A DNA stretch of 36,249 bases from a virus (IMGVR_UViG_3300043410_001642:105120-141368), one strand, 5' to 3'. Positions 241 to 33,896 are shown, counted from the first letter of the stretch. The notes: generated from the sequence alone by a model not told the origin. Numbers and translations are program-made.

Positions 241-840
241 ATGATTAACAATATAGAACTTATTAAACCATTATTAAATTTCTCCGAAGTGGGGGATTTT
301 TATATGTTGTACATCTTTAAACGAAAGAAAGACCAATCAACTGATAAAGCAAACCATCAATCGGTAAGAACAATCAAAACTTATTGTATTGGAGGTATTG
401 AACAATTGGAAGAAAGGTATGATGAAATTAAGCAATTATGTGAGATGTTCAAAGCAAGAGCATACATTCATATTCAGAAACAAAACCATAAGGATGTTGC
501 GATGAATATGATTACTGAAATTGTAACTCGTATTCAATCGGGTCAAATCAATCAGAAAAATGTATTTGATTCAGTAGTTGGACAATTGAAGACAAGTGAA
601 AAGAGATGGATTGTAGATATTGATACAAAGGATTCTAACTATGTGAATGATGTAATCAATTTTATCAATTCTATTAGACCGGAAGGTGATAATGTAGAAA
701 CAACTATTCCAACCCCGAATGGAGTTCATATCATCACAAGAAGATTTGATGTAATGGAATTTAGAAAGAAATATGCTGATGTTGATGTTCAGAAAAAGAA
801 TCCAACATTATTGTTTTACCCAAATAGTTTAGATATATGA
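241..840 (+). CDS. Putative archaeo-eukaryotic primase (AEP)-fold protein
   Basis: WIVDID (hhhDhD) and TPNGVH (sxH) motifs in AEP order. Confidence 0.5.
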   Translation: MINNIELIKPLLNFSEVGDFYMLYIFKRKKDQSTDKANHQSVRTIKTYCIGGIEQLEERYDEIKQLCEMFKARAYIHIQKQNHKDVAMNMITEIVTRIQSGQINQKNVFDSVVGQLKTSEKRWIVDIDTKDSNYVNDVINFINSIRPEGDNVETTIPTPNGVHIITRRFDVMEFRKKYADVDVQKKNPTLLFYPNSLDI

Positions 841-1415
841 AAGTAATTTTTTTAGATCATGATGGTGTGATATGTTTATCATCAGAGTGGGGAGGAAGAC
901 ATAAGAAACAACGAAGATACGGCAGAAAGATGTCTCAAAGTATTATGGAAATGCCAGTTGATGTTAGATTTGATAATTTTAATAAGAAAGCAATTGATGT
1001 ATTAAATGAAATATTGGAAGAAACAAATTGTAGTATTGTTGTCTCATCTGATTGGAAAAGATGGGCAAGTGTTGAGGAGATGGGTGAGTATTATGAATCA
1101 CAGGGTATCAAAATTAAACCAATAGGATTTACTAAATCAATTAATGATTGTGAAGTGCCAGAAGATTTCAGTTTCTCTCGTCAATTTGATTTAGAACAAC
1201 AAAGACACTTTGAAATTCTACAATATCTTAAAGATAATCCACAAATTACTCATTGGGTAGCAGTGGATGATTTGAATATGGGTAAGATTCAGAGCAATAC
1301 ATGGGGAGATATGGAATTGGATTGGGGTTTAGATAACTTTGTTCTAACACCAAGAGGAAGTGAAGGAATTAAACAAAGTGGAATTAAAGAAAAGATTATA
1401 GAATTCTTAAAATAA
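837..1415 (+). CDS. HAD-superfamily phosphatase, Swiss-Army-Knife RNA repair type
   Basis: VIFLDHDGVI motif I, IVVSSDWK motif II, WVAVDD motif IV; ATGA overlap with upstream gene. Confidence 0.8.
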   Translation: MKVIFLDHDGVICLSSEWGGRHKKQRRYGRKMSQSIMEMPVDVRFDNFNKKAIDVLNEILEETNCSIVVSSDWKRWASVEEMGEYYESQGIKIKPIGFTKSINDCEVPEDFSFSRQFDLEQQRHFEILQYLKDNPQITHWVAVDDLNMGKIQSNTWGDMELDWGLDNFVLTPRGSEGIKQSGIKEKIIEFLK

Positions 1416-1420
1416 GAGTT

Positions 1421-2071
1421 ATGAAAATTATATTAAACAAAGGGCAAAAGTTATTCTTTACAAGTGATACACACTATAACCATGCTAACATTTGTTCTGC
1501 TACAACGAAGTGGAAAGACCCGGTTACATTAAGAGAGTTCAAAACATTAGAACATATGAACTCACATTTAGCCGGTAATATCAACGAAGTAGTTAGACAA
1601 GATGATATCCTAATTCACTTAGGTGATTGGAGTTTTGGTGGATTTGAAAGTATAGAACAATTTAGAAATCAAATCGTTTGTCAAAACATCCACATCGTAA
1701 CCGGTAATCATGATCATCACATTGAAAACAATAGAGGTGATTGCCAAAAGTTATTCAGTTCAGTGAGTAAATATATGGAATTGAATGTGAAATGGCCGGT
1801 AGGGCCTGAAATGCACGATGCTAATTTTGTATTGATGCACTTTCCGATAGCAAGTTGGAACAATATGGCAAGGGGAGCAATTCATTTGCATGGACATGTT
1901 CATTTCAATCCTAATATGAGATTGCAAGAAGGTAAGATGATGGATGTGGGATGTGATGGTAATATGTTATATCCAATTGGAATGGGTGAAGTATTACACA
2001 TAATGAAAGATAGACCTATTAAATCTTTATTCAAACAAGACCACCACGAAATTGTGGAAAACTATAAATAA
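1421..2071 (+). CDS. Calcineurin-like metallophosphoesterase
   Basis: SDTH, LGD, GNHD, MHFP, HGHVH motifs. Confidence 0.9.
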   Translation: MKIILNKGQKLFFTSDTHYNHANICSATTKWKDPVTLREFKTLEHMNSHLAGNINEVVRQDDILIHLGDWSFGGFESIEQFRNQIVCQNIHIVTGNHDHHIENNRGDCQKLFSSVSKYMELNVKWPVGPEMHDANFVLMHFPIASWNNMARGAIHLHGHVHFNPNMRLQEGKMMDVGCDGNMLYPIGMGEVLHIMKDRPIKSLFKQDHHEIVENYK

Positions 2072-2077
2072 AAAAAT

Positions 2078-2272
2078 ATGAAATTAGGTTTATTTGATTT
2101 ATTTGATGGGGCAATTGCGGAATTATTAGAAGTAGATGTAGAAACATACATCAGAATAATTGAAGATGAGAATACTACCGATGAGGAGCAAGAGCAAATC
2201 ATTATGGGTATATTAAGCGAAGATGAAGAACAAAAGGTAAAAGCAAAAGAATTATTTAAAAGTAAGTTATGA
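2078..2272 (+). CDS. Small acidic hypothetical protein
   Basis: ORF track 64 aa, D/E rich, operonic spacing. Confidence 0.65.
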   Translation: MKLGLFDLFDGAIAELLEVDVETYIRIIEDENTTDEEQEQIIMGILSEDEEQKVKAKELFKSKL

Positions 2273-2682
2273 AAAATTTAATCTTATTAAGGGGATTGCC
2301 AGGTAGTGGTAAATCTACATTCGCTAAAACTATGTGGAGTGAGTTAGTAGTTTGTGAAGCCGATGATTACTTTGTAGATGAAGAAACTGGTGAATATAAG
2401 TTCAATGCGAGAGATTTACCCAAAGCACACAATTGGTGTAAGTTTAGAGTAGAAACATTTATGAAGGATAATCAGGTGAATGACCAATTCTATCCAAACA
2501 TTGTAGTATCTAATACATTCACACAAGAGTGGGAGATGGAAGACTACTTTAAGTTAGGTGAAAAGTATGGATATAAAGTATTTACCCTAATTGTTGAGAA
2601 TAGACATGGGGGTCTAAATGGACATGGAGTACCAAAAGAAAAGTTGGAGCAAATGAAAGAAAGATTCAATATTAAATTATAG
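2269..2682 (+). CDS. P-loop kinase, polynucleotide kinase-like (AAA_33 type)
   Basis: LRGLPGSGKST Walker A, EADDYF, VSNTFTQEWEM. Confidence 0.8.
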   Translation: MKNLILLRGLPGSGKSTFAKTMWSELVVCEADDYFVDEETGEYKFNARDLPKAHNWCKFRVETFMKDNQVNDQFYPNIVVSNTFTQEWEMEDYFKLGEKYGYKVFTLIVENRHGGLNGHGVPKEKLEQMKERFNIKL

Positions 2683-2685
2683 TAT

Positions 2686-2886
2686 ATGACACTAAAGGAA
2701 TTAAAAGATTTTATCAATAAGTTACCCGATAGGTTCAACGAATATGAAGTAGAGAATGCTGAATATATGGGTGGTGATGAAGAAGATGTAAAATATCGTT
2801 TGGATAAACCCATAATCGCTATATATGTTAGAGAGGATACCAAAGAAATTTTAATAATGAATAAACCAATGGAGGAATATAAATAA
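2686..2886 (+). CDS. Hypothetical protein
   Basis: ORF track 66 aa, tight spacing. Confidence 0.65.
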   Translation: MTLKELKDFINKLPDRFNEYEVENAEYMGGDEEDVKYRLDKPIIAIYVREDTKEILIMNKPMEEYK

Positions 2887-2889
2887 GTT

Positions 2890-3324
2890 ATGACAAACCA
2901 TATAGATGAATTTTTCAATGATGATTTTGTTCCAAATTTTCCACCTAATCAATCCTTTGAATATACAATGATTCCAACACAAAAATTAGAAGCATATAAA
3001 CGATTGTTAGATGATACCTTTCAACTACAATTAAATGCAGGTGATTTTTTCTACTATGCTTGTGCTCAAATGTTGAATGTAGTTTCGGAAGATGTTGATT
3101 GGGTAGTGGAACATATTCAACAATTTGGTGATGAAGGATTATATTCAGCCATGGCGTATATTCAAAACCAACAACCAATCAACCCATATTTAACGATTAA
3201 GTTTACCGATGCAATGAAAGTATTGGTGGATAGAAAGCAAGAGGTCTTTGGTGATATTGATTGGGAATATCATGGATACAAAGAAGATGGCCCATATAGA
3301 ACTATAAACGAAGAATGGTTATGA
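2890..3324 (+). CDS. Hypothetical protein
   Basis: ORF track 144 aa. Confidence 0.7.
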   Translation: MTNHIDEFFNDDFVPNFPPNQSFEYTMIPTQKLEAYKRLLDDTFQLQLNAGDFFYYACAQMLNVVSEDVDWVVEHIQQFGDEGLYSAMAYIQNQQPINPYLTIKFTDAMKVLVDRKQEVFGDIDWEYHGYKEDGPYRTINEEWL

Positions 3325-3740
3325 AACAATTCAATAATAGATACGAAGCAATAAAGGAATTCCGGAACTATCAACCAATGAATGAGGAAGTTGTAGATTT
3401 CTGGACTAAATACGATTGGGGTAAATGGAAAATGGGAGATTGGGTATTGTTTCAGTATATCAAATGTAGAGAGAATAAAATCAGTAGACCTATCTATGGT
3501 ATGTTTGTGGATTTTACAATATGGGATCAGGCATTAGTAGTTCATATAATTGAAAAACAAAGAGCAATGAGATGGCATACTGATATACTAACTAATCCTG
3601 AATTGGATATAACAATGAGATTAGGTGAGTTAGACCCGGAAGTAGAAGCATTTGAATTATGGACTGGTAATATTAAAGTGTTAGGGCATTGGAAAACTAA
3701 ACCAAGAATATCTGAATTAAAAGAGGCATTAAATAAATAA
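3315..3740 (+). CDS. Hypothetical protein (start may be 3321)
   Basis: ORF track 141 aa. Confidence 0.7.
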   Translation: MVMKQFNNRYEAIKEFRNYQPMNEEVVDFWTKYDWGKWKMGDWVLFQYIKCRENKISRPIYGMFVDFTIWDQALVVHIIEKQRAMRWHTDILTNPELDITMRLGELDPEVEAFELWTGNIKVLGHWKTKPRISELKEALNK

Positions 3741-3743
3741 GTT

Positions 3744-4145
3744 ATGAACCCACAATTAGAAGCATTAAAGAAACATTTGGAATCCGATGAGGGTAAAGCA
3801 TCTATGAAACGATTTGTTGAAAAGATGGCTAATAGATATACTGTCAGACAACGATGGGTTGAAAAGATTCATACCTACTATGGTAATGATATTGATTCAC
3901 TAACTGAAAAGTTGATGGATAAGTATTATTCAAAAGAGTATAGTGATAGGGAACATTTTAAATGTAACTGCGAACCAAGAGAACCTCTATTATGGGTGTT
4001 AATGGAATATGCAGAAACTTATGGTAAGAAATGTAAGAACAAAAAGTATTACAATATGTTTACCGGAGTTGCATATTATTTGGGTTCGTATGTAATTCAA
4101 ACAATGCACGGACAAGGTTCAGTAATTAGAATAGATAAAAAATAA
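3744..4145 (+). CDS. Hypothetical protein
   Basis: ORF track 133 aa. Confidence 0.7.
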   Translation: MNPQLEALKKHLESDEGKASMKRFVEKMANRYTVRQRWVEKIHTYYGNDIDSLTEKLMDKYYSKEYSDREHFKCNCEPREPLLWVLMEYAETYGKKCKNKKYYNMFTGVAYYLGSYVIQTMHGQGSVIRIDKK

Positions 4146-4177
4146 TTTGGAAAATTCAATAATTTTTCATATATTTA
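4146..4177 (+). promoter_or_regulatory. Bacteroidota-type sigma-A promoter (-33/-7)
   Basis: TTTGG 4146-4150 and TATATTTA 4170-4177; ATG at 4185. Confidence 0.7.
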
Positions 4178-4184
4178 CAAAGTT

Positions 4185-4478
4185 ATGACACAACAAGAAT
4201 TCAATACAAAATACAAACAATACATACCTGAAGGTTGGGGTGGATTGGAATTCGGTATACCAGAAGTTACTGATTATTTGGATAGTATTATGGATTATGG
4301 ATTAGTGAATCTACCTAATTTCAAATTACATCAAATCAAATTAAAGTTTGGTATGTGTAGATTCTATTTTGAAACATCTATGGAAAATAAAAAGCTAGAA
4401 GCGATTATTGAATTTGGAATAGAACAACAAGTGAATAATATATTAATGAAAATATTAAAAGATGGAAAACTTAAATAG
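4185..4478 (+). CDS. Hypothetical phage protein with QIKLKFGxxRFY motif
   Basis: ORF track 97 aa; motif resembles a common phage QxKEKFGxLRFY family. Confidence 0.65.
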   Translation: MTQQEFNTKYKQYIPEGWGGLEFGIPEVTDYLDSIMDYGLVNLPNFKLHQIKLKFGMCRFYFETSMENKKLEAIIEFGIEQQVNNILMKILKDGKLK

Positions 4479-5589
4479 TGTTTGTTACATTGCGGTAATC
4501 AATGAGATTAGAGCAATTGATGGTGCTGATAACATTGAATTAGCAGTAGCAGGTGGATGGAATTGTATTACTAAAAAAGGAGAACAAAAGGTTGGTGATA
4601 TGACTATGATTGCCACAACTGATGCGGTAATTCCTTTTGAACTTTCCGAAAAGATGGGAGTTACTAACTATTTGAGAAACGGAGGAAGAGTTAAGACTGT
4701 AAAGTTGAGAGGTGTATATTCAGAGTGTTTAATCATTCCTATGAAACATATTCCATTTATGGAAAATTACTATGAAGGTAAGGATATGATGTATGCAATG
4801 AATATCTACAAATATGAACCACCTGTTAAGACCGTTCAATTAGCAAGTGGTAGAAAGATTCGTTATCAAGATAATCCAAACTTTCATGTCTATTACAAAT
4901 TCCCCAACTTAAAGAATGTGCCAGGAATGTTTAATGAGGATGACATGGTTGAAATCACTCGTAAGATTCACGGAACAAATGCCAGATATGGAATTGTTAA
5001 GAAAACTAAATTATCCTTATTTGATAAGATTAAGAAATTCTTACGATTAGCAGATAAGTGGATTGATTATGAATTCGTAGTTGGTTCTCATAATGTAGAA
5101 AAGGGTTCTGATTCACAAGGTTTCTATGATACTAATGTATGGTATGAAATTGAAAAAAAATATGACATCAAAAACAAATTATGGAAATATGTACGAGCAT
5201 ATGAACCAGCGGTAATAGGTGATGGTGTTACCCTATATGGTGAGATTTACGGAGCTGGAATTCAAAAGGGATATGATTATGGGTTGAAAGAGATTGAGTT
5301 CGTAGGATTTGATATAAAGGGTAATGGTGAGTATTTACCTACTTACAATGCTTGGGCAATAATTGAAAAACAATTAGAATTACCATATGTGAAGGTTTTA
5401 CATTATGGCGATTGGTCACAAGAAGTTCAAGATAAGTTTGTATTCAACAACTTCATCAAAGGAACAAAAGTACCACATGAAGGTATTGTAATCAAATACC
5501 ATACAGGTGAAAGACAAAAGATTGCTAAAGTAATCAACCCAGATTATTTAATCTATGGTGAGAAACATAACATTGGGGATTCACATTGA
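4462..5589 (+). CDS. ATP-dependent RNA ligase, Rnl2/DRB0094 family
   Basis: N-terminal ADNIELA..GWNCITKKG module; motif I RKIHGTN, III GEIYG, IIIa FVGFDI, IV EGIVIK, V AKVIN. Confidence 0.88.
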   Translation: MENLNSVCYIAVINEIRAIDGADNIELAVAGGWNCITKKGEQKVGDMTMIATTDAVIPFELSEKMGVTNYLRNGGRVKTVKLRGVYSECLIIPMKHIPFMENYYEGKDMMYAMNIYKYEPPVKTVQLASGRKIRYQDNPNFHVYYKFPNLKNVPGMFNEDDMVEITRKIHGTNARYGIVKKTKLSLFDKIKKFLRLADKWIDYEFVVGSHNVEKGSDSQGFYDTNVWYEIEKKYDIKNKLWKYVRAYEPAVIGDGVTLYGEIYGAGIQKGYDYGLKEIEFVGFDIKGNGEYLPTYNAWAIIEKQLELPYVKVLHYGDWSQEVQDKFVFNNFIKGTKVPHEGIVIKYHTGERQKIAKVINPDYLIYGEKHNIGDSH

Positions 5590-5594
5590 TAATC

Positions 5595-5620
5595 AATGGG
5601 TTAGAAATAACCCATTTTTT
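5595..5620 (+). terminator. Intrinsic terminator
   Basis: AATGGGTT-agaaat-AACCCATT followed by a T run. Confidence 0.75.
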
Positions 5621-5621
5621 A

Positions 5622-5653
5622 TTTGGAAATGTGAGCACTTTTTCGTATATTTG
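5622..5653 (+). promoter_or_regulatory. Bacteroidota-type promoter for the Prs/Nampt/NDT operon
   Basis: TTTGG 5622-5626, TATATTTG 5646-5653. Confidence 0.8.
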
Positions 5654-5672
5654 AATATAATAAAAAGATAAA

Positions 5673-6551
5673 ATGCAGATATTAAATCTAACAAACTTTG
5701 AAGAATCTAACATTAAGTTCTTCATAAATCAATTCCCCGATGGGCAACAATCTATTACCATTGATTTCAAATCGGACATTACCTTAAAGCTAGATAAAAC
5801 AATTCGTATAAAATCCAGAATGAATTCATTTAAGGATGTTGAATTGATTATTTGTGCTAATCAATCTCTGAAAGATTTGGGAGTTGAGAATGTAGAATTA
5901 TATGTTCCCTATTTTTTAGGAGGTAGAAGTGATAGAAGATTTCTAGCCGGTCAAACTAACTATCTTAAGAATGTTATTTGCCCGATTATTAATTCACAAG
6001 GATTCTCAAAAGTTTATGTAGTGGATCCTCATAGTGATGTGTTGGAAGCGTGTTTGAATAACTTTAATAAATTTACTAATAATAGTATAGTTGAATATAC
6101 ATTGGATAAACTTAATGGTCGTTCCTCTCAAACTATGTTAGTATCTCCCGATGCCGGTGCATTAAAAAAGATTTATGATATTGCTAAAGATTTCAATATC
6201 AAAAATGTAGTAACTGCATCAAAGGTTAGAGATATTGAAAGTGGTAATATTGTTAGAACCGAATTACCAACGATGGATTTAACTGATATAGAACAAATTA
6301 TTATTATTGATGATATATGTGATGGAGGTAGAACCTTTATTGAATTGGCTAAAGTAATTAAAGAACAAACGGATAAGCCGATTTATTTGGTTGTTACTCA
6401 TGGTATATTCAGTGGAGGATTTGAAAAGTTAAGTGATGTATTAGATGGTATCTTCTGCACGAATAGTATTAAAAATATTGACTTTGATATTGTTAAAGTT
6501 CAATCAAGACAAAATAGTTCAGATTTCGTAAAACAATTAAATATATTCTAA
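5673..6551 (+). CDS. prs: Ribose-phosphate pyrophosphokinase homolog (candidate NARP1 Adps)
   Basis: FPDGQ, YVPYFLGGRSDRRF, VDPHS, VSPDAGA, PRT motif IIIIDDICDGGRTF. Confidence 0.88.
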   Translation: MQILNLTNFEESNIKFFINQFPDGQQSITIDFKSDITLKLDKTIRIKSRMNSFKDVELIICANQSLKDLGVENVELYVPYFLGGRSDRRFLAGQTNYLKNVICPIINSQGFSKVYVVDPHSDVLEACLNNFNKFTNNSIVEYTLDKLNGRSSQTMLVSPDAGALKKIYDIAKDFNIKNVVTASKVRDIESGNIVRTELPTMDLTDIEQIIIIDDICDGGRTFIELAKVIKEQTDKPIYLVVTHGIFSGGFEKLSDVLDGIFCTNSIKNIDFDIVKVQSRQNSSDFVKQLNIF

Positions 6552-6554
6552 AAT

Positions 6555-8018
6555 ATGAACCCATTATTATTAACCGACGGTTACAAAACAGGTCATCATC
6601 AGCAATATCCTAAAGGAACAACTTTAGTATATTCAAACTTCACACCCCGTTCTAACAAATATGCACCGAAAGGATGTGATGAAGTAGTATCATTCGGGCA
6701 ACAAATGATTATGAAACAAATTCATGAAGCATTTGAAACGGAGTTCTTCTCTAAACCAAAGGATGAAGTATGTGGTGAGATGAAGAAAGAGTTAAGTTTA
6801 TATTTGGGAACTGAATATGATGTTACACATTTTGAGAAGTTACATGATTTAGGATATCTACCTATCAATGTTAAAGGTATTGAAGAAGGAACATTAGTTC
6901 CAATGAAAGTACCTGTATTAACAATCTATAATACATTGCCAGAGTTCTATTGGGTAACAAACTACTTAGAAACAATCATTTCTAACCTATTATGGAAACC
7001 AATGACATCTGCTACAATTGCACACACATATCGTAAGGTATTGACTAAGTGGCAAGAAAAGACAGATGCTGAAAAAGGTTGGTTTGTTGATTGGCAAGGG
7101 CATGATTTCTCTATGAGAGGAATGGATAGTATTGAAGCGACTATTGCAAGTGGATTGGGACACTTAACATCATTTAGTGGAACGGATTCATTACCTGCAA
7201 TTGGTGGAGCAAGAAAATTCTATGGAGAAGAAGGATTCGTTGGAGGTTCAGTAAATGCTACCGAACATAGTGTAATGTGTGCAGGTGGTAAAGAAGATGA
7301 AATAGAAACATTCCGTAGATTATTAAACACATATCCAACTGGCATCTTATCAGTGGTAAGTGATACATGGGATTTATGGAAAGTATGTACCGAACATATC
7401 GTAACTCTTAAAGAAGAAATCTTAGCAAGAGATGGTAAATTGGTTATACGACCTGATAGTGGAGACCCGGTTGATATTCTTTGTGGTAAGATGTTCCCAT
7501 TAGGTGCAACATTGACAGGAAGACAAATCAGCGAAAGTAAAGGTGTTATTCAATTACTATGGGAAGCGTTTGGTGGAACAACAAATGAGCAAGGATATAA
7601 AGTATTAGATTCTCATATCGGTGCAATCTATGGTGATAGTATTACAATTGATAGAGCAAATGAAATTTGTGAAAGATTAGAAAGAAAAGGATTTGCATCT
7701 ACTAATGTTGTATTAGGTATTGGTTCATTCACTTATCAGTATAACACAAGAGATACATTTGGATTCGCAATGAAAGCAACATATGTTGAAGTAAATGGTG
7801 AAGCAAGAGAAATCTTCAAAGACCCAATTACCGATGATGGTACAAAGAAATCTGCCACAGGTTTATTGGCTGTGTCAAGAGATGCATTTGGCAACATTGC
7901 TCTTAATGATAAAGTTGGTTGGGATTTAGAATCATTAGGATTATTGAAACCTATCTATGTGGATGGTGTATTCGGAGAACAAACAACATTAACTGAAATT
8001 AAAAACCGATTAAAATAA
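6555..8018 (+). CDS. nadV: Nicotinamide phosphoribosyltransferase homolog (candidate NARP1 Namat)
   Basis: LLTDGYKTGH, HDFSMRG, ATEHSVMC, SVVSDTWD, VIRPDSGDP, IYGDSIT, FAMKAT, KDPITDDGTKKSATG. Confidence 0.92.
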   Translation: MNPLLLTDGYKTGHHQQYPKGTTLVYSNFTPRSNKYAPKGCDEVVSFGQQMIMKQIHEAFETEFFSKPKDEVCGEMKKELSLYLGTEYDVTHFEKLHDLGYLPINVKGIEEGTLVPMKVPVLTIYNTLPEFYWVTNYLETIISNLLWKPMTSATIAHTYRKVLTKWQEKTDAEKGWFVDWQGHDFSMRGMDSIEATIASGLGHLTSFSGTDSLPAIGGARKFYGEEGFVGGSVNATEHSVMCAGGKEDEIETFRRLLNTYPTGILSVVSDTWDLWKVCTEHIVTLKEEILARDGKLVIRPDSGDPVDILCGKMFPLGATLTGRQISESKGVIQLLWEAFGGTTNEQGYKVLDSHIGAIYGDSITIDRANEICERLERKGFASTNVVLGIGSFTYQYNTRDTFGFAMKATYVEVNGEAREIFKDPITDDGTKKSATGLLAVSRDAFGNIALNDKVGWDLESLGLLKPIYVDGVFGEQTTLTEIKNRLK

Positions 8019-8494
8019 TGGTAGTAGTTAAACCCGGAAACGATAACTTATATTATAGTAAGAATAATGTCAAAATATTTTTAGCAGGTTCTATTGAGAT
8101 GGGAGCAGCTGAAGAATGGCAGAAAGTAATTGAAGATACATTTAGACATAAATCTGAATTAGTGATATTCAATCCTCGTAGAGATGATTGGGATAGTAGT
8201 TGGGAACAAAAAGAATCAAATGGGCAATTCAACTATCAAGTTAATTGGGAGTTGGATAGATTAACCGAATCAGATATCATTTTTATGTATTTTGCACCGG
8301 ATACTAAATCACCTATCAGTTTATTAGAATTAGGATTATATGCTGGAAGTAAGAAAATGATTGTAGTTTGTCCAGATAGTTTTTGGAGAAAGGGTAATGT
8401 TGATATTGTATGTAATAGATATGATATTCCTATTTATGAAACATTGGATAAAGGAATTGGTGCTTTGAGAACCAGATTGAAAGATGTAAGATAA
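8018..8494 (+). CDS. Nucleoside 2-deoxyribosyltransferase-like (NDT superfamily) protein
   Basis: IFLAGSI, FNPRRDDW, QVNWEL, SPISLLELG; ATG overlaps the upstream TAA. Confidence 0.85.
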   Translation: MVVVKPGNDNLYYSKNNVKIFLAGSIEMGAAEEWQKVIEDTFRHKSELVIFNPRRDDWDSSWEQKESNGQFNYQVNWELDRLTESDIIFMYFAPDTKSPISLLELGLYAGSKKMIVVCPDSFWRKGNVDIVCNRYDIPIYETLDKGIGALRTRLKDVR

Positions 8495-8495
8495 A

Positions 8496-8527
8496 TTTGG
8501 AAATGTAAAATAATAATAGTATATTTG
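8496..8527 (+). promoter_or_regulatory. Bacteroidota-type promoter for the DIP1984-like gene and RNA
   Basis: TTTGG 8496-8500, TATATTTG 8520-8527. Confidence 0.75.
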
Positions 8528-8548
8528 TAAAAATAAAATCATAAAACA

Positions 8549-8977
8549 ATGAATGTAAAACAGGCATTAAAACAAAAGAACAAATTAGTAACTGAATTGA
8601 AAGCTAGTTATGAGATTTTGAAAAAGTATAACTCAATTGAGGAAGGTAATCCTCGTAGATATTCAATGAATGATACATTGGATAAAATTACTAACTTATC
8701 AAATGAGTTAGTAGAGTTAAAAGCACAAATTCATAAAGCAAATCAACCGGTGTATGATAAAATCTTTGCATTGGCAGAGTTGAAAGGATTGGTAAAGGAA
8801 TTAAAGAAAGTTCCAACGGATGAAGGAAAGCAAGTGGAAAGATATGGAAGTGTTGCTTCAGTAAAAGAAGTAGAATTAACTATTGTAGATATCCAAAACA
8901 AAGTTGATATCTTAACTACGAAAATTGAAGAGTTGCAAAATGAATTGGATATTCATAATGCGAATACTCAAATCTAA
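8549..8977 (+). CDS. DIP1984-family-like coiled-coil protein
   Basis: All-helical; N-terminal ALKQKNKL...NSIEEG, central IHKAN, C-terminal KIEELQNELDIHNANTQI resemble that family. Confidence 0.6.
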   Translation: MNVKQALKQKNKLVTELKASYEILKKYNSIEEGNPRRYSMNDTLDKITNLSNELVELKAQIHKANQPVYDKIFALAELKGLVKELKKVPTDEGKQVERYGSVASVKEVELTIVDIQNKVDILTTKIEELQNELDIHNANTQI

Positions 8978-8982
8978 AAATA

Positions 8983-9186
8983 TTGAGTGAGTGGGGTTTG
9001 AAACTGATTGATTAGTTTATTCTTACAATTCTACTATGATACCAAATAGCGGATGAACGAATAAGATAATGAATAATTAACAAACTTCAACAATATTAGG
9101 GTCATTTGTCGCGTAATTTCAATACCATCAAACCTCTTTGAAACCTGGATAACCTTTTTAATCCGAATCATTCCTCACAAACTCAA
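8983..9186 (+). ncRNA. Candidate ~204-nt structured RNA
   Basis: No ORF; ends pair (TTGAGT-GA-GTGGGG 8983-8996 with CCTCAC-AA-ACTCAA 9173-9186); inner helices 9005-9009/9166-9170, 9012-9022/9071-9080, 9147-9150/9161-9164. Confidence 0.6.
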
Positions 9187-9213
9187 ACTTATTAAACCAC
9201 TAAAAATTAAAAT

Positions 9214-9477
9214 ATGAACGCATTAATCGTTTATTACATCATTTGTATTATTTATTGTTTCTATCAACTGAATAAGAAATATAATAATAGAGGTGTTGAA
9301 TATGGAACATCACCAGAGTTGGATTCAATTATGGTATTAGTTATGGCATGGGTGTTAGCACCTATTGATGTATCTATTACTTGGATTAGAATGGTGAAAA
9401 ACGCTGAAGAAGCTAGAATTAAACATAGTAAAATAGATACAACTGATTTCAAAACTGAAAAAAGTAATATCTATTAG
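9214..9477 (+). CDS. Small membrane protein
   Basis: Two hydrophobic segments. Confidence 0.7.
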   Translation: MNALIVYYIICIIYCFYQLNKKYNNRGVEYGTSPELDSIMVLVMAWVLAPIDVSITWIRMVKNAEEARIKHSKIDTTDFKTEKSNIY

Positions 9478-9485
9478 AATAAAAT

Positions 9486-9571
9486 AGAGAGGTGGTAGAG
9501 TTGGTTGAATACACCGGTCTTGAAAACCGGCAGATGTAAAAGTCTCGGGGGTTCGAATCCCTCCCTCTCTG
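9486..9571 (+). tRNA. tRNA-Ser (anticodon TGA), type II; CCA not encoded
   Basis: Acceptor AGAGAGG/CCTCTCT, anticodon arm CCGGT-CT TGA AA-ACCGG, long variable arm, GTTCGAATCC T loop, G73. Confidence 0.95.
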
Positions 9572-9579
9572 CACTTAAT

Positions 9580-9786
9580 ATGTTAGAGTTTAAGAAACCA
9601 ATACCAGTAGTAGTAGAAGGAAACAAAGATGGATATGCAATCTATGTTACTGATAGCGGAATGTTTGAAAATGATATTTGGTGTGTGGTACTATGTGAAG
9701 GTGGTGTTGTAAGACATTATCGTAGTGACCAAATCAGAATATTTTTCAATGCGACTTTTGATATAGAAAAGGATAAAACATTGTAA
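9580..9786 (+). CDS. Hypothetical protein (true start after the tRNA)
   Basis: MLEFKKPIPVV...; the track start at 9505 lies inside tRNA-Ser. Confidence 0.7.
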   Translation: MLEFKKPIPVVVEGNKDGYAIYVTDSGMFENDIWCVVLCEGGVVRHYRSDQIRIFFNATFDIEKDKTL

Positions 9787-9951
9787 TGTGTTGGAATAAG
9801 CTCGATAAAAAGAGCTGTGGCAGACAAGCCCTCCTGTCTCGGGGGTGGTGAGAACGAAATAGATTAGTAATACGGGGGATGACCACCAGCTTGCAAGCAC
9901 TTTGTTACTAATTGAATCGCACCGTGGAGTGTTCGAATCCTCCCATTACAG
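9782..9951 (+). tRNA. Oversized 170-nt tRNA-Asp(GTC)-like RNA
   Basis: Acceptor TGTAATG/CATTACA, G73, D stem TTGG/ACAA with 29-nt loop, anticodon arm CCCTC-CT GTC TC-GGGGG, 80-nt paired variable arm, T arm GGAG(T)G-TTCGAAT-CCTCC. Confidence 0.7.
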
Positions 9952-9972
9952 CAATACCTAAATAAAAAACAA

Positions 9973-10491
9973 ATGGATTACAAAGAATACATTTCCGATG
10001 TTCCCGATTTCCCTAAGAAGGGTGTAATGTTTAGAGATATAACTCCATTATTGGCTTCTCCTAAAATTTTTAATAATGTAATTGATGACCTTTCTTTATT
10101 ATTAGATGAATCTTTTGATGAAGAGGTTAAGTTATTGGCGGGGATTGAAGCGAGAGGATTCTTAATTGGTGCTGCATTGGCATCTTTGAATGGCAATGGG
10201 TTTGTACCAATCCGTAAAGAAGGAAAACTACCTCCACCTAAAGTAGCAACATATTCTACAAAGGAATATGGTGTTGATATGTTAGAGGTGAAAGAGAGTA
10301 TTGTTCAGCAAGATATTATTTTAGTTGATGATGTATTGGCAACCGGAGGAACATTGAAAGCATCAGAGAAGTTGTTAAATAGTGCTGGATACAATGTAGT
10401 GGGAGCAATCACACTAATAGATTTAACTTATTTACATTCTGAAGATATACTTATAGGAGGAAAGAAGGTTATTAGTTTGATACAATACTAA
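9973..10491 (+). CDS. apt: Adenine phosphoribosyltransferase
   Basis: VPDFPKKGVMFRDIT, GIEARGF, IRKEGKLP, KEYG, LVDDVLATGGT. Confidence 0.92.
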   Translation: MDYKEYISDVPDFPKKGVMFRDITPLLASPKIFNNVIDDLSLLLDESFDEEVKLLAGIEARGFLIGAALASLNGNGFVPIRKEGKLPPPKVATYSTKEYGVDMLEVKESIVQQDIILVDDVLATGGTLKASEKLLNSAGYNVVGAITLIDLTYLHSEDILIGGKKVISLIQY

Positions 10492-11159: not shown

Positions 11160-11191
11160 TTTGTAATTATCACAAATTATTCGTATATTTG
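11160..11191 (+). promoter_or_regulatory. Bacteroidota-type promoter upstream of groES
   Basis: TTTG 11160-11163, TATATTTG 11184-11191. Confidence 0.75.
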
Positions 11192-15248: not shown

Positions 15249-15507
15249 GACAGATACATTAGAAAAGACAAGTGAAGAAACTATACAACAATCATCTATA
15301 ATCTTATGGAATGATGAAGTGAATAGTTTTGATTGGGTAATAGATTGCTTAGTTAGAGTATTGGGACAGAACAAACTTCAGGCAGAGCAATGTGCTTATA
15401 TGGTTCATCATAAAGGTAAGTGTGATGTTAAGAGAGGTTGGTATGAAGAGTTAGAACCATATTCACAAAAGTTAAAAGATTTAGGATTAACAACGACAAT
15501 AGAATAA
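15241..15507 (+). CDS. clpS: ClpS N-degron adaptor
   Basis: ILWNDEVNSFDWVIDCL, QAEQCAYMVHHKGKCDVK; GTG start. Confidence 0.85.
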   Translation: MNKTDTLEKTSEETIQQSSIILWNDEVNSFDWVIDCLVRVLGQNKLQAEQCAYMVHHKGKCDVKRGWYEELEPYSQKLKDLGLTTTIE

Positions 15508-15508
15508 T

Positions 15509-20943: not shown

Positions 20944-21074
20944 TTATAGAAGAAAAGATAGAGAAGTTAAAGGAGTTATTAAAGGTAATGATAGAGTTAG
21001 AAGAGTACCATATATGTGCTCAAATTAAGGGAATAATAGATAGATATGAGAGGTTAGAAGGGAGTGATACCTAA
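20940..21074 (+). CDS. 44-aa UVR (UvrB/UvrC)-motif-like peptide
   Basis: LKELLKVMIELEEYHICAQIKGII; ATGA overlap with the FeoA-like gene. Confidence 0.55.
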   Translation: MIIEEKIEKLKELLKVMIELEEYHICAQIKGIIDRYERLEGSDT

Positions 21075-21241
21075 TTCTTTTTTTAATCAAAATCCACCCC
21101 TATATAAGAAGAAATAAAGCGGTATCCGCCCTATTGTTTAAACCCATTTTATACGGATTGTTGAAATGGAGATTGAAAGCGAGAAAAGAGTGTAAAATGT
21201 AGATTTATACACTTTAGTGACTTATTGTTATAGATAAGAGA

Positions 21242-21277
21242 GGGGTGAAAAAGTGGGAGAAAGTGGGTAGTAGTGGG
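21242..21277 (+). repeat. 10-bp-phased AGTGGG repeats, G-quadruplex-capable
   Basis: G runs at 21242-45, 21255-57, 21265-67, 21275-77. Confidence 0.65.
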
Positions 21278-21317
21278 ATATACACATACACACATACGGA
21301 GAAATTTTTTTTACGCA

Positions 21318-21348
21318 CAAAGGTACGGAAAAAAATCCATATTTCAAA
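21318..21348 (-). promoter_or_regulatory. Consensus promoter with no credible downstream ORF
   Basis: Minus strand TTTG-N19-TACCTTTG. Confidence 0.7.
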
Positions 21349-21491
21349 GCCCTAAATACAAAATTTTATTCTCTTTTATACACCATATTCAGTAAAATAT
21401 TCTGCGAGGTGTCGGGCTGAGCAGAATAAAATTCGGTTTACAAATGTTTACAAATGGGTAGGGATACTACTGATGTATTCACAAATGTAAA

Positions 21492-21824
21492 CTACTCAAA
21501 CCATTGGTCTCTGCGAGTTTTTATATTCTTAATACCAGGGTCTTTCAACTTAGGGTCACCACCTAACTTCTCTGCCGCCTGACGGATAGAGTTAGAATAT
21601 TCTTCATCACCGATACGACCAATCTCTTTAGCTTTTTTTAATTCTTCAGTAGTAAGTGCTTCACCCTTAGTGATTGCAGCAAATTGTTTTGTGTGATAAC
21701 TACCTAACGGCTTAATAGTGTGAGTGGCTCTTAAGTGAGCGGCTTTGGCATCTAAGTATTTGAAAAGGTCATCATCGGATAAACCTTTTAGTTCTTCATC
21801 AGTAAGTTCTTTAAATGTACTCAT
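21492..21824 (-). CDS. Hypothetical early protein
   Basis: ORF track 110 aa, in a minus-strand operon. Confidence 0.75.
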   Translation of the reverse strand: MSTFKELTDEELKGLSDDDLFKYLDAKAAHLRATHTIKPLGSYHTKQFAAITKGEALTTEELKKAKEIGRIGDEEYSNSIRQAAEKLGGDPKLKDPGIKNIKTRRDQWFE

Positions 21825-22339: not shown

Positions 22340-22392
22340 ATCTTATCTCTTTGTTACATAGTAAAGGTAGGTAGTAGTTACGACATATCCAA
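22340..22392 (-). promoter_or_regulatory. Early-type promoter plus conserved leader (leftward)
   Basis: Minus strand TTGG-N19-TACCTTTA-ctatgtaacaaagagataagat-ATG. Confidence 0.8.
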
Positions 22393-22445
22393 GCATTTTC
22401 CAAACTTTTTTTAAAATAAAGTGAAAATAAAGTTATCCACATTGC

Positions 22446-22493
22446 TTGGATATATGATACTTTTTCCTTACCTTAGTAGGGCGGGCGGGAGGC
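22446..22493 (+). promoter_or_regulatory. Early-type promoter firing into a G-rich non-coding start
   Basis: TTGG-N19-TACCTTAG then tagggcgggcgggaggc. Confidence 0.65.
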
Positions 22494-22521
22494 TAGTATA
22501 TACCAATAGCAGCCGGTCATC

Positions 22522-22565
22522 GTAACTCACTGATAATCAATCCATTGTAACTCACTGATAATCAA
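22522..22565 (+). repeat. Two exact 19-bp boxes, 25-bp period
   Basis: GTAACTCACTGATAATCAA at 22522 and 22547. Confidence 0.9.
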
Positions 22566-22607
22566 GCGAGAATTTTGTAGGAAAAGTAAAAATAATTTAG
22601 TATATGC

Positions 22608-22662
22608 TTGGATATGTCCCAACTCCTTCCTATCTTTACTATGTAATCAAATGAGAGATACT
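22608..22662 (+). promoter_or_regulatory. Early-type promoter plus conserved leader
   Basis: TTGG-N19-TATCTTTA-ctatgtaatcaaatgagagatact-ATG. Confidence 0.85.
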
Positions 22663-22806
22663 ATGAAAAAGTCACTTCCTAAACATCGTAAGTTAATGAT
22701 GGAATCTTTAGAACTCCTATTCAATGGTAATAGAGTGGAGGCTAAGAAGAAGATTAAGAAGGCTAAAGTAGAGGTTGAGAAGTTTTATTCAGTAAAAAAT
22801 AAGTAA
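22663..22806 (+). CDS. 47-aa basic micro-protein
   Basis: MKKSLPKHRKLMMESLELLFNGNRVEAKKKIKKAKVEVEKFYSVKNK after the conserved leader. Confidence 0.7.
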   Translation: MKKSLPKHRKLMMESLELLFNGNRVEAKKKIKKAKVEVEKFYSVKNK

Positions 22807-22807
22807 T

Positions 22808-24648: not shown

Positions 24649-24656
24649 TCCCACTC

Positions 24657-24692
24657 AAATAGGGGGAAACCTTTGGATTCTCCCTATTTTTC
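24657..24692 (+). terminator. Intrinsic terminator
   Basis: AAATAGGGGGAA...TTCTCCCTATTT 12-bp stem plus T run. Confidence 0.8.
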
Positions 24693-24744
24693 TTAAAAAA
24701 ATACAATTAATTTTAATATTTATATAAAACAAAACAACTAAAAC

Positions 24745-24912
24745 ATGAAAAAAGTATTAGCAATCGTAGCAATCGCTACATCATTAGTGGCTTGTGGTGG
24801 TGCTTCAACTGAAGTAAAGACAGATTCAACAGCCGTTTCAACCGATTCAACAGCAGTAGTAGCTGATTCAACAACTGCACCAGCAGCTGCTGACACAATC
24901 GCTACTAAGTAA
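24745..24912 (+). CDS. 55-aa lipoprotein with DST repeats
   Basis: MKKVLAIVAIATSLVAC lipobox (Cys17), then DSTAVSTDSTAVVADSTT...ADTI; not in ORF track. Confidence 0.85.
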   Translation: MKKVLAIVAIATSLVACGGASTEVKTDSTAVSTDSTAVVADSTTAPAAADTIATK

Positions 24913-24931
24913 GATAATAAAGATTACTTTA

Positions 24932-25018
24932 AGGGTGGGTAAGTAGGAAACATCTTCAATTGCAGTTCTATTCTCTCTTTTACTCTTTTATTACAATAAA
25001 GTTTCTTACATTATACCT
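24932..25018 (+). ncRNA. Candidate antisense/3'UTR RNA element
   Basis: GTAAG..GGAAAC pairs with GTTTCTTAC, closing a pyrimidine-rich loop complementary to early leaders. Confidence 0.45.
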
Positions 25019-25050
25019 AACGGAGGTTGAGAAGACAGCCTCCGTTTTTC
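25019..25050 (+). terminator. Intrinsic terminator
   Basis: AACGGAGGTTG-agaaga-CAGCCTCCGTT plus T run. Confidence 0.85.
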
Positions 25051-25087
25051 TGTGTCCCATTCTATTTATAGAGGAACAAAGATAATT

Positions 25088-25118
25088 TTGGTTTTTTGGT
25101 TGTTTTTTCGTATCTTTG
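25088..25118 (+). promoter_or_regulatory. Promoter
   Basis: TTGG-N19-TATCTTTG. Confidence 0.8.
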
Positions 25119-25138
25119 TAGAGTATAAACCTATTATT

Positions 25139-25549: not shown

Positions 25550-25567
25550 AAATAAATCGGTTTTCTC

Positions 25568-25617
25568 TTGGATTTCTCATACTTTTTTATTACCTTTATA
25601 GGGCGGCAGGGCGGGAG
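25568..25617 (+). promoter_or_regulatory. Early-type promoter firing into a G-rich non-coding start
   Basis: TTGG-N19-TACCTTTA then tagggcggcagggcgggag. Confidence 0.65.
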
Positions 25618-25639
25618 TAGATACCCATTAACCCTTTCC

Positions 25640-25683
25640 ATAACTCGCTGATTCCCAACAACTTGTAACTCGTTGATTCTCAA
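25640..25683 (+). repeat. Two degenerate 19-bp boxes, 25-bp period
   Basis: ATAACTCGCTGATTCCCAA and GTAACTCGTTGATTCTCAA. Confidence 0.8.
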
Positions 25684-25724
25684 TCGAGTTTTTTTGTTTT
25701 TTCCAAAGATTTTTACCTATATGC

Positions 25725-25779
25725 TTGGGTTATGTTACCTTTTGCCCTATCTTTACTATGTAATCAAATGAGAGATACT
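25725..25779 (+). promoter_or_regulatory. Early-type promoter plus leader identical to the 22629 copy
   Basis: TTGG-N19-TATCTTTA; 39-nt identity 25746-25784 versus 22629-22667. Confidence 0.85.
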
Positions 25780-25890
25780 ATGAATGAGACAATAACAATC
25801 GGAGAGACATTATTAGTTACCTTATTCACCTTTGTGTGTATTATAGGGTATGTGTTCGTTAAAACAATTTTAGAATCAAAAAATAAGTAA
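25780..25890 (+). CDS. 36-aa membrane micro-protein
   Basis: MNETITIGETLLVTLFTFVCIIGYVFVKTILESKNK. Confidence 0.7.
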   Translation: MNETITIGETLLVTLFTFVCIIGYVFVKTILESKNK

Positions 25891-25891
25891 T

Positions 25892-26068
25892 ATGAGTAAG
25901 AAAATAACAAAAGTAGTAAAAGAACCCAAAGTATCTAATGCCGGCAGTGATGCTATCTTTTTTGCCGGTCAATACCCCGATTGGATGACTAAGAAGACAG
26001 ACTTAGAGTGGGTAAAGTATATGAATAAGAAGTATGGGTTTGAATGGAATGGTAAAGACACTAAATAA
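25892..26068 (+). CDS. 58-aa hypothetical protein
   Basis: MSKKITKVVKEPKVSNAG...; below track cutoff. Confidence 0.65.
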   Translation: MSKKITKVVKEPKVSNAGSDAIFFAGQYPDWMTKKTDLEWVKYMNKKYGFEWNGKDTK

Positions 26069-26074
26069 CATTAT

Positions 26075-26182
26075 ATGAGTAGAGCAATTAAGGCTTATGT
26101 GGAGGCCATATATCCACAACAACCTTCTTTTTCCGAAATCTTTTTTGAGAAAATGCTTGGTTTATTCAAACTTTTTTCGTAA
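26075..26182 (+). pseudogene. Short ORF running into a promoter (possible truncated gene)
   Basis: MSRAIKAYVEAIYPQQ then reads through promoter sequence and stops in the -7 box. Confidence 0.35.
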
Positions 26183-26204
26183 TATTACAATGTACTAAGA
26201 GATA
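26157..26204 (+). promoter_or_regulatory. Variant early promoter plus leader
   Basis: TTGG-N19-TAATATTA-caatgtactaagagata. Confidence 0.6.
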
Positions 26205-30754: not shown

Positions 30755-30777
30755 AAAATATTTGGAATATTCAATAA
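30742..30777 (+). pseudogene. 11-codon stub of a 12th paralog
   Basis: ATGCTCACAATAAAAAATATT = MLTIKNI, then promoter sequence and TAA. Confidence 0.55.
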
Positions 30778-30792
30778 TTTTTCGTATATTTG
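30761..30792 (+). promoter_or_regulatory. Bacteroidota-type promoter in an AT hairpin
   Basis: TTTGG 30761-30765, TATATTTG 30785-30792. Confidence 0.8.
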
Positions 30793-33864: not shown

Positions 33865-33896
33865 TTTGGAAAATCCAATAATTTTTCGTATATTTG
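33865..33896 (+). promoter_or_regulatory. Promoter in a hairpin, near-leaderless start
   Basis: TTTGG-aaaat-CCAATA; TATATTTG 33889-33896; ATG 4 nt later. Confidence 0.8.

Follow-up and report, generated by a model that had tools for sequence, protein, structure and literature searches.

GOLLD, ROOL and the T4 'species 1 and 2' RNAs are structured phage RNAs of obscure function that lie in or beside tRNA clusters. Type III toxin-antitoxin systems (ToxIN and relatives) pair a protein gene with a neighbouring non-coding RNA that shares its promoter. The closest described arrangement is that of Ro60 (Rsr/TROVE) and Y RNA, in which a protein gene stands beside a structured RNA (~100–200 nt) whose ends form a closing stem, and the locus adjoins an RNA ligase and end-healing enzymes; jumbo phages are reported to carry modules of the Ro/Y RNA type in their RNA-repair loci (PMC7824862). 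All of these general features recur in the locus described here. Its protein is a divergent member of a large family, DIP1984/DUF6847, which has a solved structure and whose phage branch alone comprises ~1,500 clusters at 50% identity; in the literature we met DIP1984 solely as an annotation label, 'septicolysin', with no function given. Our literature search for a described equivalent of the protein–RNA cassette found none, and this cassette of large freshwater phages, made up of a promoter, a protein gene and a knotted RNA, looks like a new protein-plus-RNA unit.

The window analysed is a stretch of 36,249 nucleotides of low-GC (33%) phage DNA, part of a 141-kb freshwater virus record. From this sequence an earlier note had proposed a DIP1984-like gene with its own promoter, followed by a structured RNA. 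The cassette and its neighbours are arranged as follows.

837–1412, plus strand: HAD_SAK_2 RNA-repair phosphatase
1421–2068, plus strand: Metallophos phosphoesterase
2269–2679, plus strand: AAA_33 kinase
4462–5586, plus strand: RNA ligase (PHA02142 OB fold and RNA_ligase)
5673–6548, plus strand: PRPP-synthetase-like gene
6555–8015, plus strand: NAMPT
8018–8491, plus strand: Nuc_deoxyri_tr2
8496–8527, plus strand: promoter of the Bacteroidota −33/−7 type, consisting of TTTG, 20 bases and TATATTTG
8549–8977, plus strand: ORF of a 142-aa DIP1984/DUF6847-family protein (three long helices and a beta-hairpin, prefoldin-like, predicted homodimer)
8978–9213, plus strand: ORF-free stretch of 236 nt
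about 8978–9190, plus strand: structured non-coding RNA of ~210 nt, its ends placed from contig starts and end-to-end junctions
9214–9477, plus strand: ORF of a predicted membrane protein of 87 aa
9486–9572, plus strand: tRNA-Ser(UGA)
9973–10488, plus strand: phosphoribosyltransferase
beyond 10488, plus strand: GroES/GroEL and UvdE

Both the 142-aa ORF and the 236 ORF-free bases behind it were confirmed at these coordinates; the gap is the 6th largest of 73 in the window, where the median distance between ORFs is 11 nt. As had been claimed, the cassette sits between NAD-salvage genes and a tRNA. The 87-aa membrane ORF is the commonest downstream neighbour among relatives, yet an inconstant one, and probably lies outside the cassette unit.

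The promoter that the earlier note had assigned to the gene withstood comparison. A TTTG/TAnnTTTG pattern, which we take to be the Bacteroidota −33/−7 consensus, matches exactly at 8496–8527. Nine copies of TTTG-N17–21-TAnnTTTG occur in the window against 1.55 expected (0/100 shuffles reached nine), and six of them precede plus-strand genes and have an extended form in common. Among 75 distinct regions upstream of the homologous gene, 59 contain TAnnTTTG at −27 to −36, in most cases with a TTTGG block before it, and the promoter block is kept although the preceding genes differ between relatives. About eight of the 16 remaining regions come directly after a tRNA, and most of the others hold sequences close to the consensus, for instance TATATTTA. 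At the cassette nothing resembling a sigma-70 site is conspicuous, no intrinsic terminator was detected in 8300–9700, and neither a second promoter nor a terminator was found between gene and RNA. A single transcript probably carries the gene and the RNA together with the small ORF and the tRNA, with tRNA-Ser(UGA) apparently inside the transcription unit of the cassette.

Assignment of the protein to the DIP1984 family was upheld through its relatives. On its own the window protein matched NF038048 at E=0.001 (19.2 bits over a full-length alignment, below the curated cut-off of 70 bits) and gave no match to PF20935 (DUF6847) at E≤0.01, so that it stays under both curated cut-offs, whereas its relatives match both models: 34 of 39 spread-out relatives matched NF038048 (best 3.6e-14) and 17 of the 39 matched PF20935/DUF6847 (best 7.1e-11). 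With a profile built from 13 relatives, 1,537 cluster representatives passed E≤0.001, almost all of them 140–150 aa long, and many profile matches carry a precomputed PF20935 label. The AlphaFold (AF2) model (pLDDT 85) consists of helices at residues 3–27, 41–86 and 112–139 and a beta-hairpin at 93–108. Its best fold matches in the PDB were 3kdq_A and 3kdq_C (TM 0.71–0.76, probability 1.00, Foldseek E 0.02–0.09), with prefoldin subunits ranking after them, and the AFDB fold search returned uncharacterised proteins and prefoldins. Judged by the transitive HMM matches and the modelled fold, the protein is a divergent member of the DIP1984/DUF6847 family. Searching PDB sequences with the family profile gave coiled-coil noise only, PHROGs gave nothing meaningful and a protein search of plasmids gave no match; GTDB genomes yielded relatives neither of the window protein family nor of P0270, and no host or prophage copy was found.

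A homodimer was predicted with a score of 0.56 (best of three controls, 0.00), 100% contact agreement between runs and a partner pLDDT of 91. This mark is reached by 20/30 solved one-chain pairs and by 1/23 solved single chains, and the pass, obtained with a custom alignment, may be memory, since the similar structure 3kdq has been solved with several chains. The protein probably forms a dimer or a larger assembly. Invariant residues cluster at three places: the N-terminal helix, which is basic (KxxxKxKNK), a loop reading NSIEEGN-RRY, and ANxPVY. The protein as a whole is neutral (pI 6.75, with K+R and D+E at 22 each).

The fold and the gene order bear on the suggestion, made in the earlier note, of a toxin/antitoxin-like pair. 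In a type III-like system the protein would be a toxin and the RNA its neutralising partner, and a small protein gene with an adjacent structured RNA under one promoter is what such a system would present. Type III systems, however, place a tandem-repeat RNA upstream of an endoribonuclease toxin with a terminator between the two, and the cassette differs in each respect. Its RNA has no tandem repeats and follows the gene instead of preceding it, no terminator intervenes, and the protein is a helical coiled coil without a nuclease-like fold, for which PADLOC returned only marginal matches (E 0.002–0.007) to parts of large coiled-coil proteins. With order, repeats, terminator and fold, each of the defining features open to testing, all at variance, we consider the toxin-antitoxin reading very improbable.

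The RNA model matched directly after the gene in 22 IMG/VR loci (L001–L022) and in all 80 metagenome loci with sequence remaining, and L023 carries a divergent closed RNA at the same place (z −4.2). Searching IMG/VR for the invariant block of the RNA gave 21 true copies, none of them on a contig that lacks the gene (confirmed in 20; one lies at the locus edge). A 22nd pattern match, in L024, was discarded, since it falls by chance within the coding sequence of an unrelated gene. More than 100 loci each contain a single copy of the RNA. Both upstream and downstream, the flanking genes that are not tRNAs come from more than seven families unrelated to one another, and the RNA is tied to the upstream gene always and to the downstream gene never.

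The association extends to distant homologs (32–43% identity), every one of which, where downstream sequence is present, has an ORF-free gap of 230–570 nt after the gene. Where the gap was folded, it opens with a closed structure formed by long-range pairing, in which UCAA-type repeats occur. The RNA model still matches L138 (E=1.6e-7); closed RNAs follow the stop codon in L144 (z −4.76) and L135; in L147 and L148 a closed RNA is succeeded by tRNAs; and L150, from the 462-kb 'uncultured phage' LR756500.1 (a published megaphage), has the GAUAAUGAAU block in common. The model, R1, is too narrow for RNAs of the L144, L147 and L135 types, which were judged by fold, position and motifs. A DNA search of GenBank phages returned tRNA matches only. 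Retention of the pair down to 32–37% protein identity with changing flanks argues that the pairing is old and has been maintained while sequence and surroundings changed. To this extent the proposed protein–RNA system stands, as one inherited unit with its own promoter.

The structure drawn in the earlier note came from one sequence. Folding that sequence alone gives a modest result on the plus strand (z −1.79, 10/200 shuffles as good), and the minus strand folds worse than its shuffles (z +1.29). The support for RNA structure thus comes from comparison with relatives rather than from the single-sequence fold. The ~225–235 nt after the stop codon are ORF-free and alignable across 23 IMG/VR and 80 metagenome loci, which encode relatives of 52–94% protein identity, and in some blocks of this stretch conservation exceeds that at the gene's synonymous positions. 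A MAFFT alignment folded with RNAalifold yielded 28 pairs; compensatory changes were present in 14. In alignment A5 (74 distinct sequences), which was fitted to the RNA model and with whose helices the independent MAFFT alignment agrees, 96.9% of cells are paired and 21 of the 28 pairs show changes on both sides. None of 500 shuffles reached any A5 covariation measure, and the covariation score was 0.226, compared with 0.02–0.06 for slid partners. G-U pairs fit the plus strand only. The conserved elements are listed below.

8983–8988 with 9181–9186 and 8991–8996 with 9173–9178, plus strand: closing stem P1, consisting of 6 bp, a GA/AA purine 2x2 loop and 6 bp
8999–9001 with 9168–9170, plus strand: P2, its register ambiguous with 9005–9009/9166–9170 and its pairs nearly invariant
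9014–9022 with 9147–9155, plus strand: P3, both-side changes in 7/8 pairs
9034–9037 with 9046–9049, plus strand: hairpin P4, whose loop enters a pseudoknot
9040–9043 (P4 loop) with 9112–9115, plus strand: pseudoknot with matched changes
9049–9068, plus strand: nearly invariant unpaired core, AGCGGAUGAACGAAUAAGAU
9087–9131, plus strand: UCAA-repeat region, with UCAA at 9087, 9119 and 9128 and an invariant UAGGGUC at 9097–9103

A conserved downstream fold with covariation was looked for among the homologs and found, closing stem included. P1, which the note had drawn at 8983–8996/9173–9186, is present and covaries in ~100 related loci (both-side changes in 8/11 pairs, 94.9% of cells paired). The inner helices proposed there fared differently. 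Pairing of 9012–9022 with 9071–9080 forms in this sequence but is lost in relatives, where covariation joins 9014–9022 to 9147–9155 to give P3 (for example AU:33/UA:31 and UA:36/AU:17/GC:11). The helix 9147–9150/9161–9164 likewise forms in the window sequence and is not kept among relatives, and 9005–9009/9166–9170 is one of two possible registers, of which the comparative fold prefers the other, 8999–9001/9168–9170; covariation supports none of these three helices. Matched changes in the pseudoknot comprise AUGCC/GGCAU, CGCC/GGCG, CAC/GUG, UAC/GUA, GGC/GCC and AUUGC/GCAAU; in a permutation test the observed value was reached by 41/2000. UCAA, the repeat that is conserved from one subfamily to another, is over-represented in nine representatives (40 seen, 17.5 expected; 0/500 shuffles), and the six (C/G)AAAC(C/T) motifs that had been noticed in the window are present where they had been placed, against 0.54 expected (0/2000 dinucleotide shuffles reached six).

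No conserved ORF was found in the gap among relatives. A reading of the gap as a small-protein gene was rejected, since the longest ORFs agree in neither strand nor frame nor length. In the Rfam search the tRNA alone reached the gathering score; at E≤10 no family matched the RNA, the best matches in 8900–9300 having E values of 1.7–9.6. The stretch GGAUGAACG resembles the 5′ region of 16S rRNA, a likeness expected by chance. The RNA would be a complex family new to Rfam, with a pseudoknot and an invariant core.

Position and structure together bear on a cis-acting role. On this account the RNA would be a 3′-UTR element, a processing site and stabiliser through which the gene becomes independent of the messages downstream; its own protein might bind it in a feedback loop, and the RNA that accumulates would be a by-product. 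It fits that the RNA starts immediately behind the stop codon and accompanies the upstream gene in every case and the downstream one in none, that processing would be needed where no terminator is nearby, and that the long interrupted stem resembles what we take to be phage RNase III sites (T7). A simple processing hairpin, however, needs no pseudoknot, no invariant unpaired core of 20 nt and no conserved repeats, and the gene's synonymous sites are less tightly conserved than the RNA. We judge this reading rather unlikely.

Twenty-one river and lake metatranscriptome runs contain 40–45% of the sampled words of 8970–9215; two of the 21 matched a 1.2-kb stretch as well, with 7–8% of its words, the same absolute number. 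When contigs (not reads) of four RNA runs were mapped on 8300–9700, the summed contig depth was 20–138 over 8958–9192 and 0–4 over the gene and the downstream ORF, in runs chosen for containing the RNA and by exact words that favour the conserved RNA over a coding gene. Two contigs begin exactly at 8978, and low-depth contigs that bridge gene and RNA, or RNA and flank, represent precursor or DNA; parts of the stretch that no contig covers need not be silent. The ends so placed fall at 8977–8982 (5′) and 9184–9190 (3′). These contigs indicate a discrete, abundant RNA, and we conclude that its ends lie at the base of P1.

The same data speak to whether the element acts as DNA, for instance as a recombination boundary or a replication or packaging site. 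Gene content changes immediately after it in many relatives, as would suit such a boundary. A DNA-level role sits poorly with compensatory changes that keep the pairs, including G-U pairs specific to one strand, and with over-representation of the stretch in RNA libraries; we give it hardly any credence.

A stronger competitor makes the RNA alone the active part: a stable decoy or sponge in which the conserved core and the unpaired UCAA repeats titrate a host RNA-binding protein or a defence nuclease, with the protein as a co-expressed helper (such as a chaperone) or of separate function. UCAA is enriched in unpaired parts across the subfamilies and SAAACY in the window, in the RNA libraries the gene's mRNA is far outnumbered by the RNA, and the protein is not basic, all of which this explanation accommodates. 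Unless the two depend on each other, however, it hardly explains why gene and RNA are kept so strictly together across deep divergence and among reshuffled neighbours. We regard it as unlikely, but ahead of the other alternatives.

In two runs, contigs were found in which the 3′ end of the RNA is joined to its 5′ end. The joints read 9187-T-8977, ...CACAAACTC followed by 8978 and ...CTCAAATTA followed by 8982, and the junction contig sequence ...CCTCACAAACTC joins 8978/8982 in the two RNA runs. Junction sites vary by a few bases, junction depth is ~3.4 compared with 20–50 for the RNA body, and both junction-bearing runs probably stem from one campaign. Joints of other kinds in X41 (9190 to 8649, and a strand switch at 8983) were set aside as library artefacts or fragment ligation. 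The joined form is absent from IMG/VR DNA, where all nine pattern matches are due to chance.

The joined contigs, the absence of that form from DNA together with a single RNA copy in each of more than 100 loci, and the frequent adjacency of an RNA ligase are what would be seen if the RNA were made circular, whether through an RNA ligase of phage or host that seals the ends brought together in P1 or through self-catalysis. Variable, low-depth junctions also fit template switching by reverse transcriptase on an abundant linear RNA, however; the two runs share a probable origin, one complete relative lacks the ligase, and no ribozyme family was matched. We put the chance that the RNA is circular at roughly one in three, and that the circle is the active form seems to us distinctly doubtful, a little more so than the cis-acting role. 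Should the junctions reflect true circles, the cassette would provide a rare instance, among bacterial viruses, of a circular RNA encoded by a gene. A Neo-like endless ORF, as in DRT2, was rejected: every frame of the circularised unit has 6–14 stops per two units. Nor does the phage record contain the RVT_1 domain of a retron- or DRT-type template RNA system.

The surroundings of the cassette may point to RNA repair. An RNA ligase gene ends 61–820 nt upstream, most often 61–69 nt, in 25 of the 76 loci with enough upstream sequence, and in these ligase-adjacent loci a kinase and a phosphoesterase precede the ligase; in the window, the NAD-salvage genes separate ligase and cassette. tRNAs are neighbours too. 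A tRNA directly precedes the gene in L014–L016, and in L021 the cassette lies inside an array of 24 tRNAs, with the RNA ending one base before tRNA-Glu, so that RNase P would make its 3′ end there. Three of four complete relatives encode the ligase 4–14 kb away. The fourth, a genome of 209 kb with the cassette, has no PF09414 RNA ligase. Given this relative and the many loci with unrelated neighbours, the tie to RNA repair, as read from gene neighbourhoods, would be frequent and not obligate.

Our preferred explanation, which is tentative and which we place slightly short of an even chance, is a cassette with a processed RNA whose ribonucleoprotein serves the RNA-repair/tRNA module. A Bacteroidota-type promoter would drive the gene of the DIP1984/DUF6847-fold protein, with the ~210-nt RNA starting right after its stop codon. 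Cleavage at the foot of the closing stem would release the RNA from a polycistronic transcript, after which it would accumulate as a stable pseudoknotted molecule. Protein and RNA would then form a ribonucleoprotein, the most likely working model given putative binding, in which the unpaired core and the UCAA repeats may provide the surface that contacts the protein or a target. Its role would lie with the RNA-repair/tRNA counter-defence module of the phage, in a placement like that of Ro protein and Y RNA beside RtcB in the RNA-repair operons of bacteria. Of all this, the RNA structure, the promoter, the genetic coupling of gene and RNA and the occurrence of the RNA in RNA libraries are shown, and co-transcription, processing, binding of the RNA by the protein and the tie to RNA repair are inferred. 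Against the ribonucleoprotein model stand the neutral charge of the protein and the chance that gene and RNA are linked because the RNA acts in cis on the mRNA of that gene. The observations in the earlier note are confirmed in part, and its interpretation is in part supported.

A bolder version can be drawn, which we consider improbable, on a par with the cis-acting role: a widespread, undescribed ribonucleoprotein of large phages, combining a dimeric or oligomeric DIP1984-fold protein with the pseudoknotted ~210-nt RNA, excised and then circularised by the adjacent RNA-repair ligase, that would act as a nuclease-resistant decoy or adaptor in protecting or repairing phage tRNAs under RNA-targeting immunity. 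A constant RNA partner is a concrete lead on DIP1984/DUF6847, and the bolder version, if true, would give the family its first function. Many freshwater and river metatranscriptomes contain enough of the RNA for it to assemble, although Rfam has no entry for it. Location beside ligase, kinase and phosphoesterase genes and in tRNA arrays suggests a new component of counter-defence against RNA-targeting immunity.

Set against described systems, the protein resembles C. diphtheriae DIP1984 (PDB 3kdq; NF038048/DUF6847, often annotated 'septicolysin') in having equal length as well as the same fold. Like GOLLD, ROOL and T4 species 1 and 2, the RNA is a structured RNA of tRNA regions, and such RNAs are processed from transcripts of this kind. 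GOLLD and ROOL are ~3–4 times longer and have no dedicated protein gene, and the cassette RNA, unlike them, has no match in Rfam. GOLLD and ROOL are reported to assemble as RNA-only cages (10.1101/2024.12.08.627333).

Ro60 and Y RNA offer the nearest parallel in layout, and the components differ. The protein has the DIP1984/DUF6847 fold, and the phage record holds no TROVE gene, no RtcB and no reverse transcriptase (RVT_1). The RNA matches no Y RNA or YrlA model of Rfam even at E≤10, and ARAGORN finds no tRNA-like gene in it. The ligase of these loci is of the ATP-dependent Rnl type, not RtcB. By this comparison the cassette would be an analogue, and not a homologue, of Ro/Y RNA beside RtcB.

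The gene most frequently found 3′ of the RNA belongs to the family of an 87-aa predicted membrane ORF (9214-9477 in the window), and is present in the window itself and at the loci of the relatives L002, L004-L008, L012 and L013. The ORF is preceded by a conserved flank, CTTATTAACCACTAAAA, and might be a third, optional component of the cassette.

In the distant relative L138 (2655-2852), approximately 140 nt of additional predicted structure extends beyond the RNA and is accompanied by a strong intrinsic terminator, consisting of a 17-bp hairpin and a U run. In contrast, no intrinsic terminator was found in the window when 8300-9700 was scanned. In the 595-kb phage L151 (LR756511.1; ∼2985-3075) a tiny lysine-rich ORF follows the homologous gene, and is itself followed by a closed RNA that repeats GUUAAA in place of UCAA. 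This arrangement may represent a further variant of the gene-RNA unit.

Some relatives carry tRNA genes next to the cassette. The relative L021 encodes 24 tRNA genes within 4.7 kb (1072-5820), with the protein-RNA cassette located between tRNA-Ser and tRNA-Glu. Directly 3′ of the RNA in the distant relative L147, ARAGORN called a tRNA (3074-3153) with a two-base, undetermined anticodon, which may be an intron-containing or otherwise unusual tRNA.

Upstream of the cassette, the window contains a complete set of end-healing and sealing genes, in which the Rnl-type ligase has a PHA02142 OB fold at its N-terminal side.

Genes upstream of the cassette
837-5586: HAD_SAK_2 phosphatase, Metallophos phosphoesterase, AAA_33 kinase and Rnl-type RNA ligase
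2890-4475: four ORFs without annotation, between the AAA_33 kinase and the RNA ligase

Neither ARAGORN nor Rfam returned a match in six other large window stretches lacking ORFs of at least 60 aa.

Further large ORF-free stretches
25550-26204
24649-25138
22343-22807
20944-21494
15249-15508
9787-9972

Besides the cassette's own promoter, the extended form TTTGG...CGTATATTTG occurs in five additional copies in the window, all intergenic.

Extended promoter copies
5622-5653, + strand, intergenic
11160-11191, + strand, intergenic
25087-25118, + strand, intergenic
30761-30792, + strand, intergenic
33865-33896, + strand, intergenic

These copies resemble a Bacteroidota-type class of phage promoters, and point to a Bacteroidota host.
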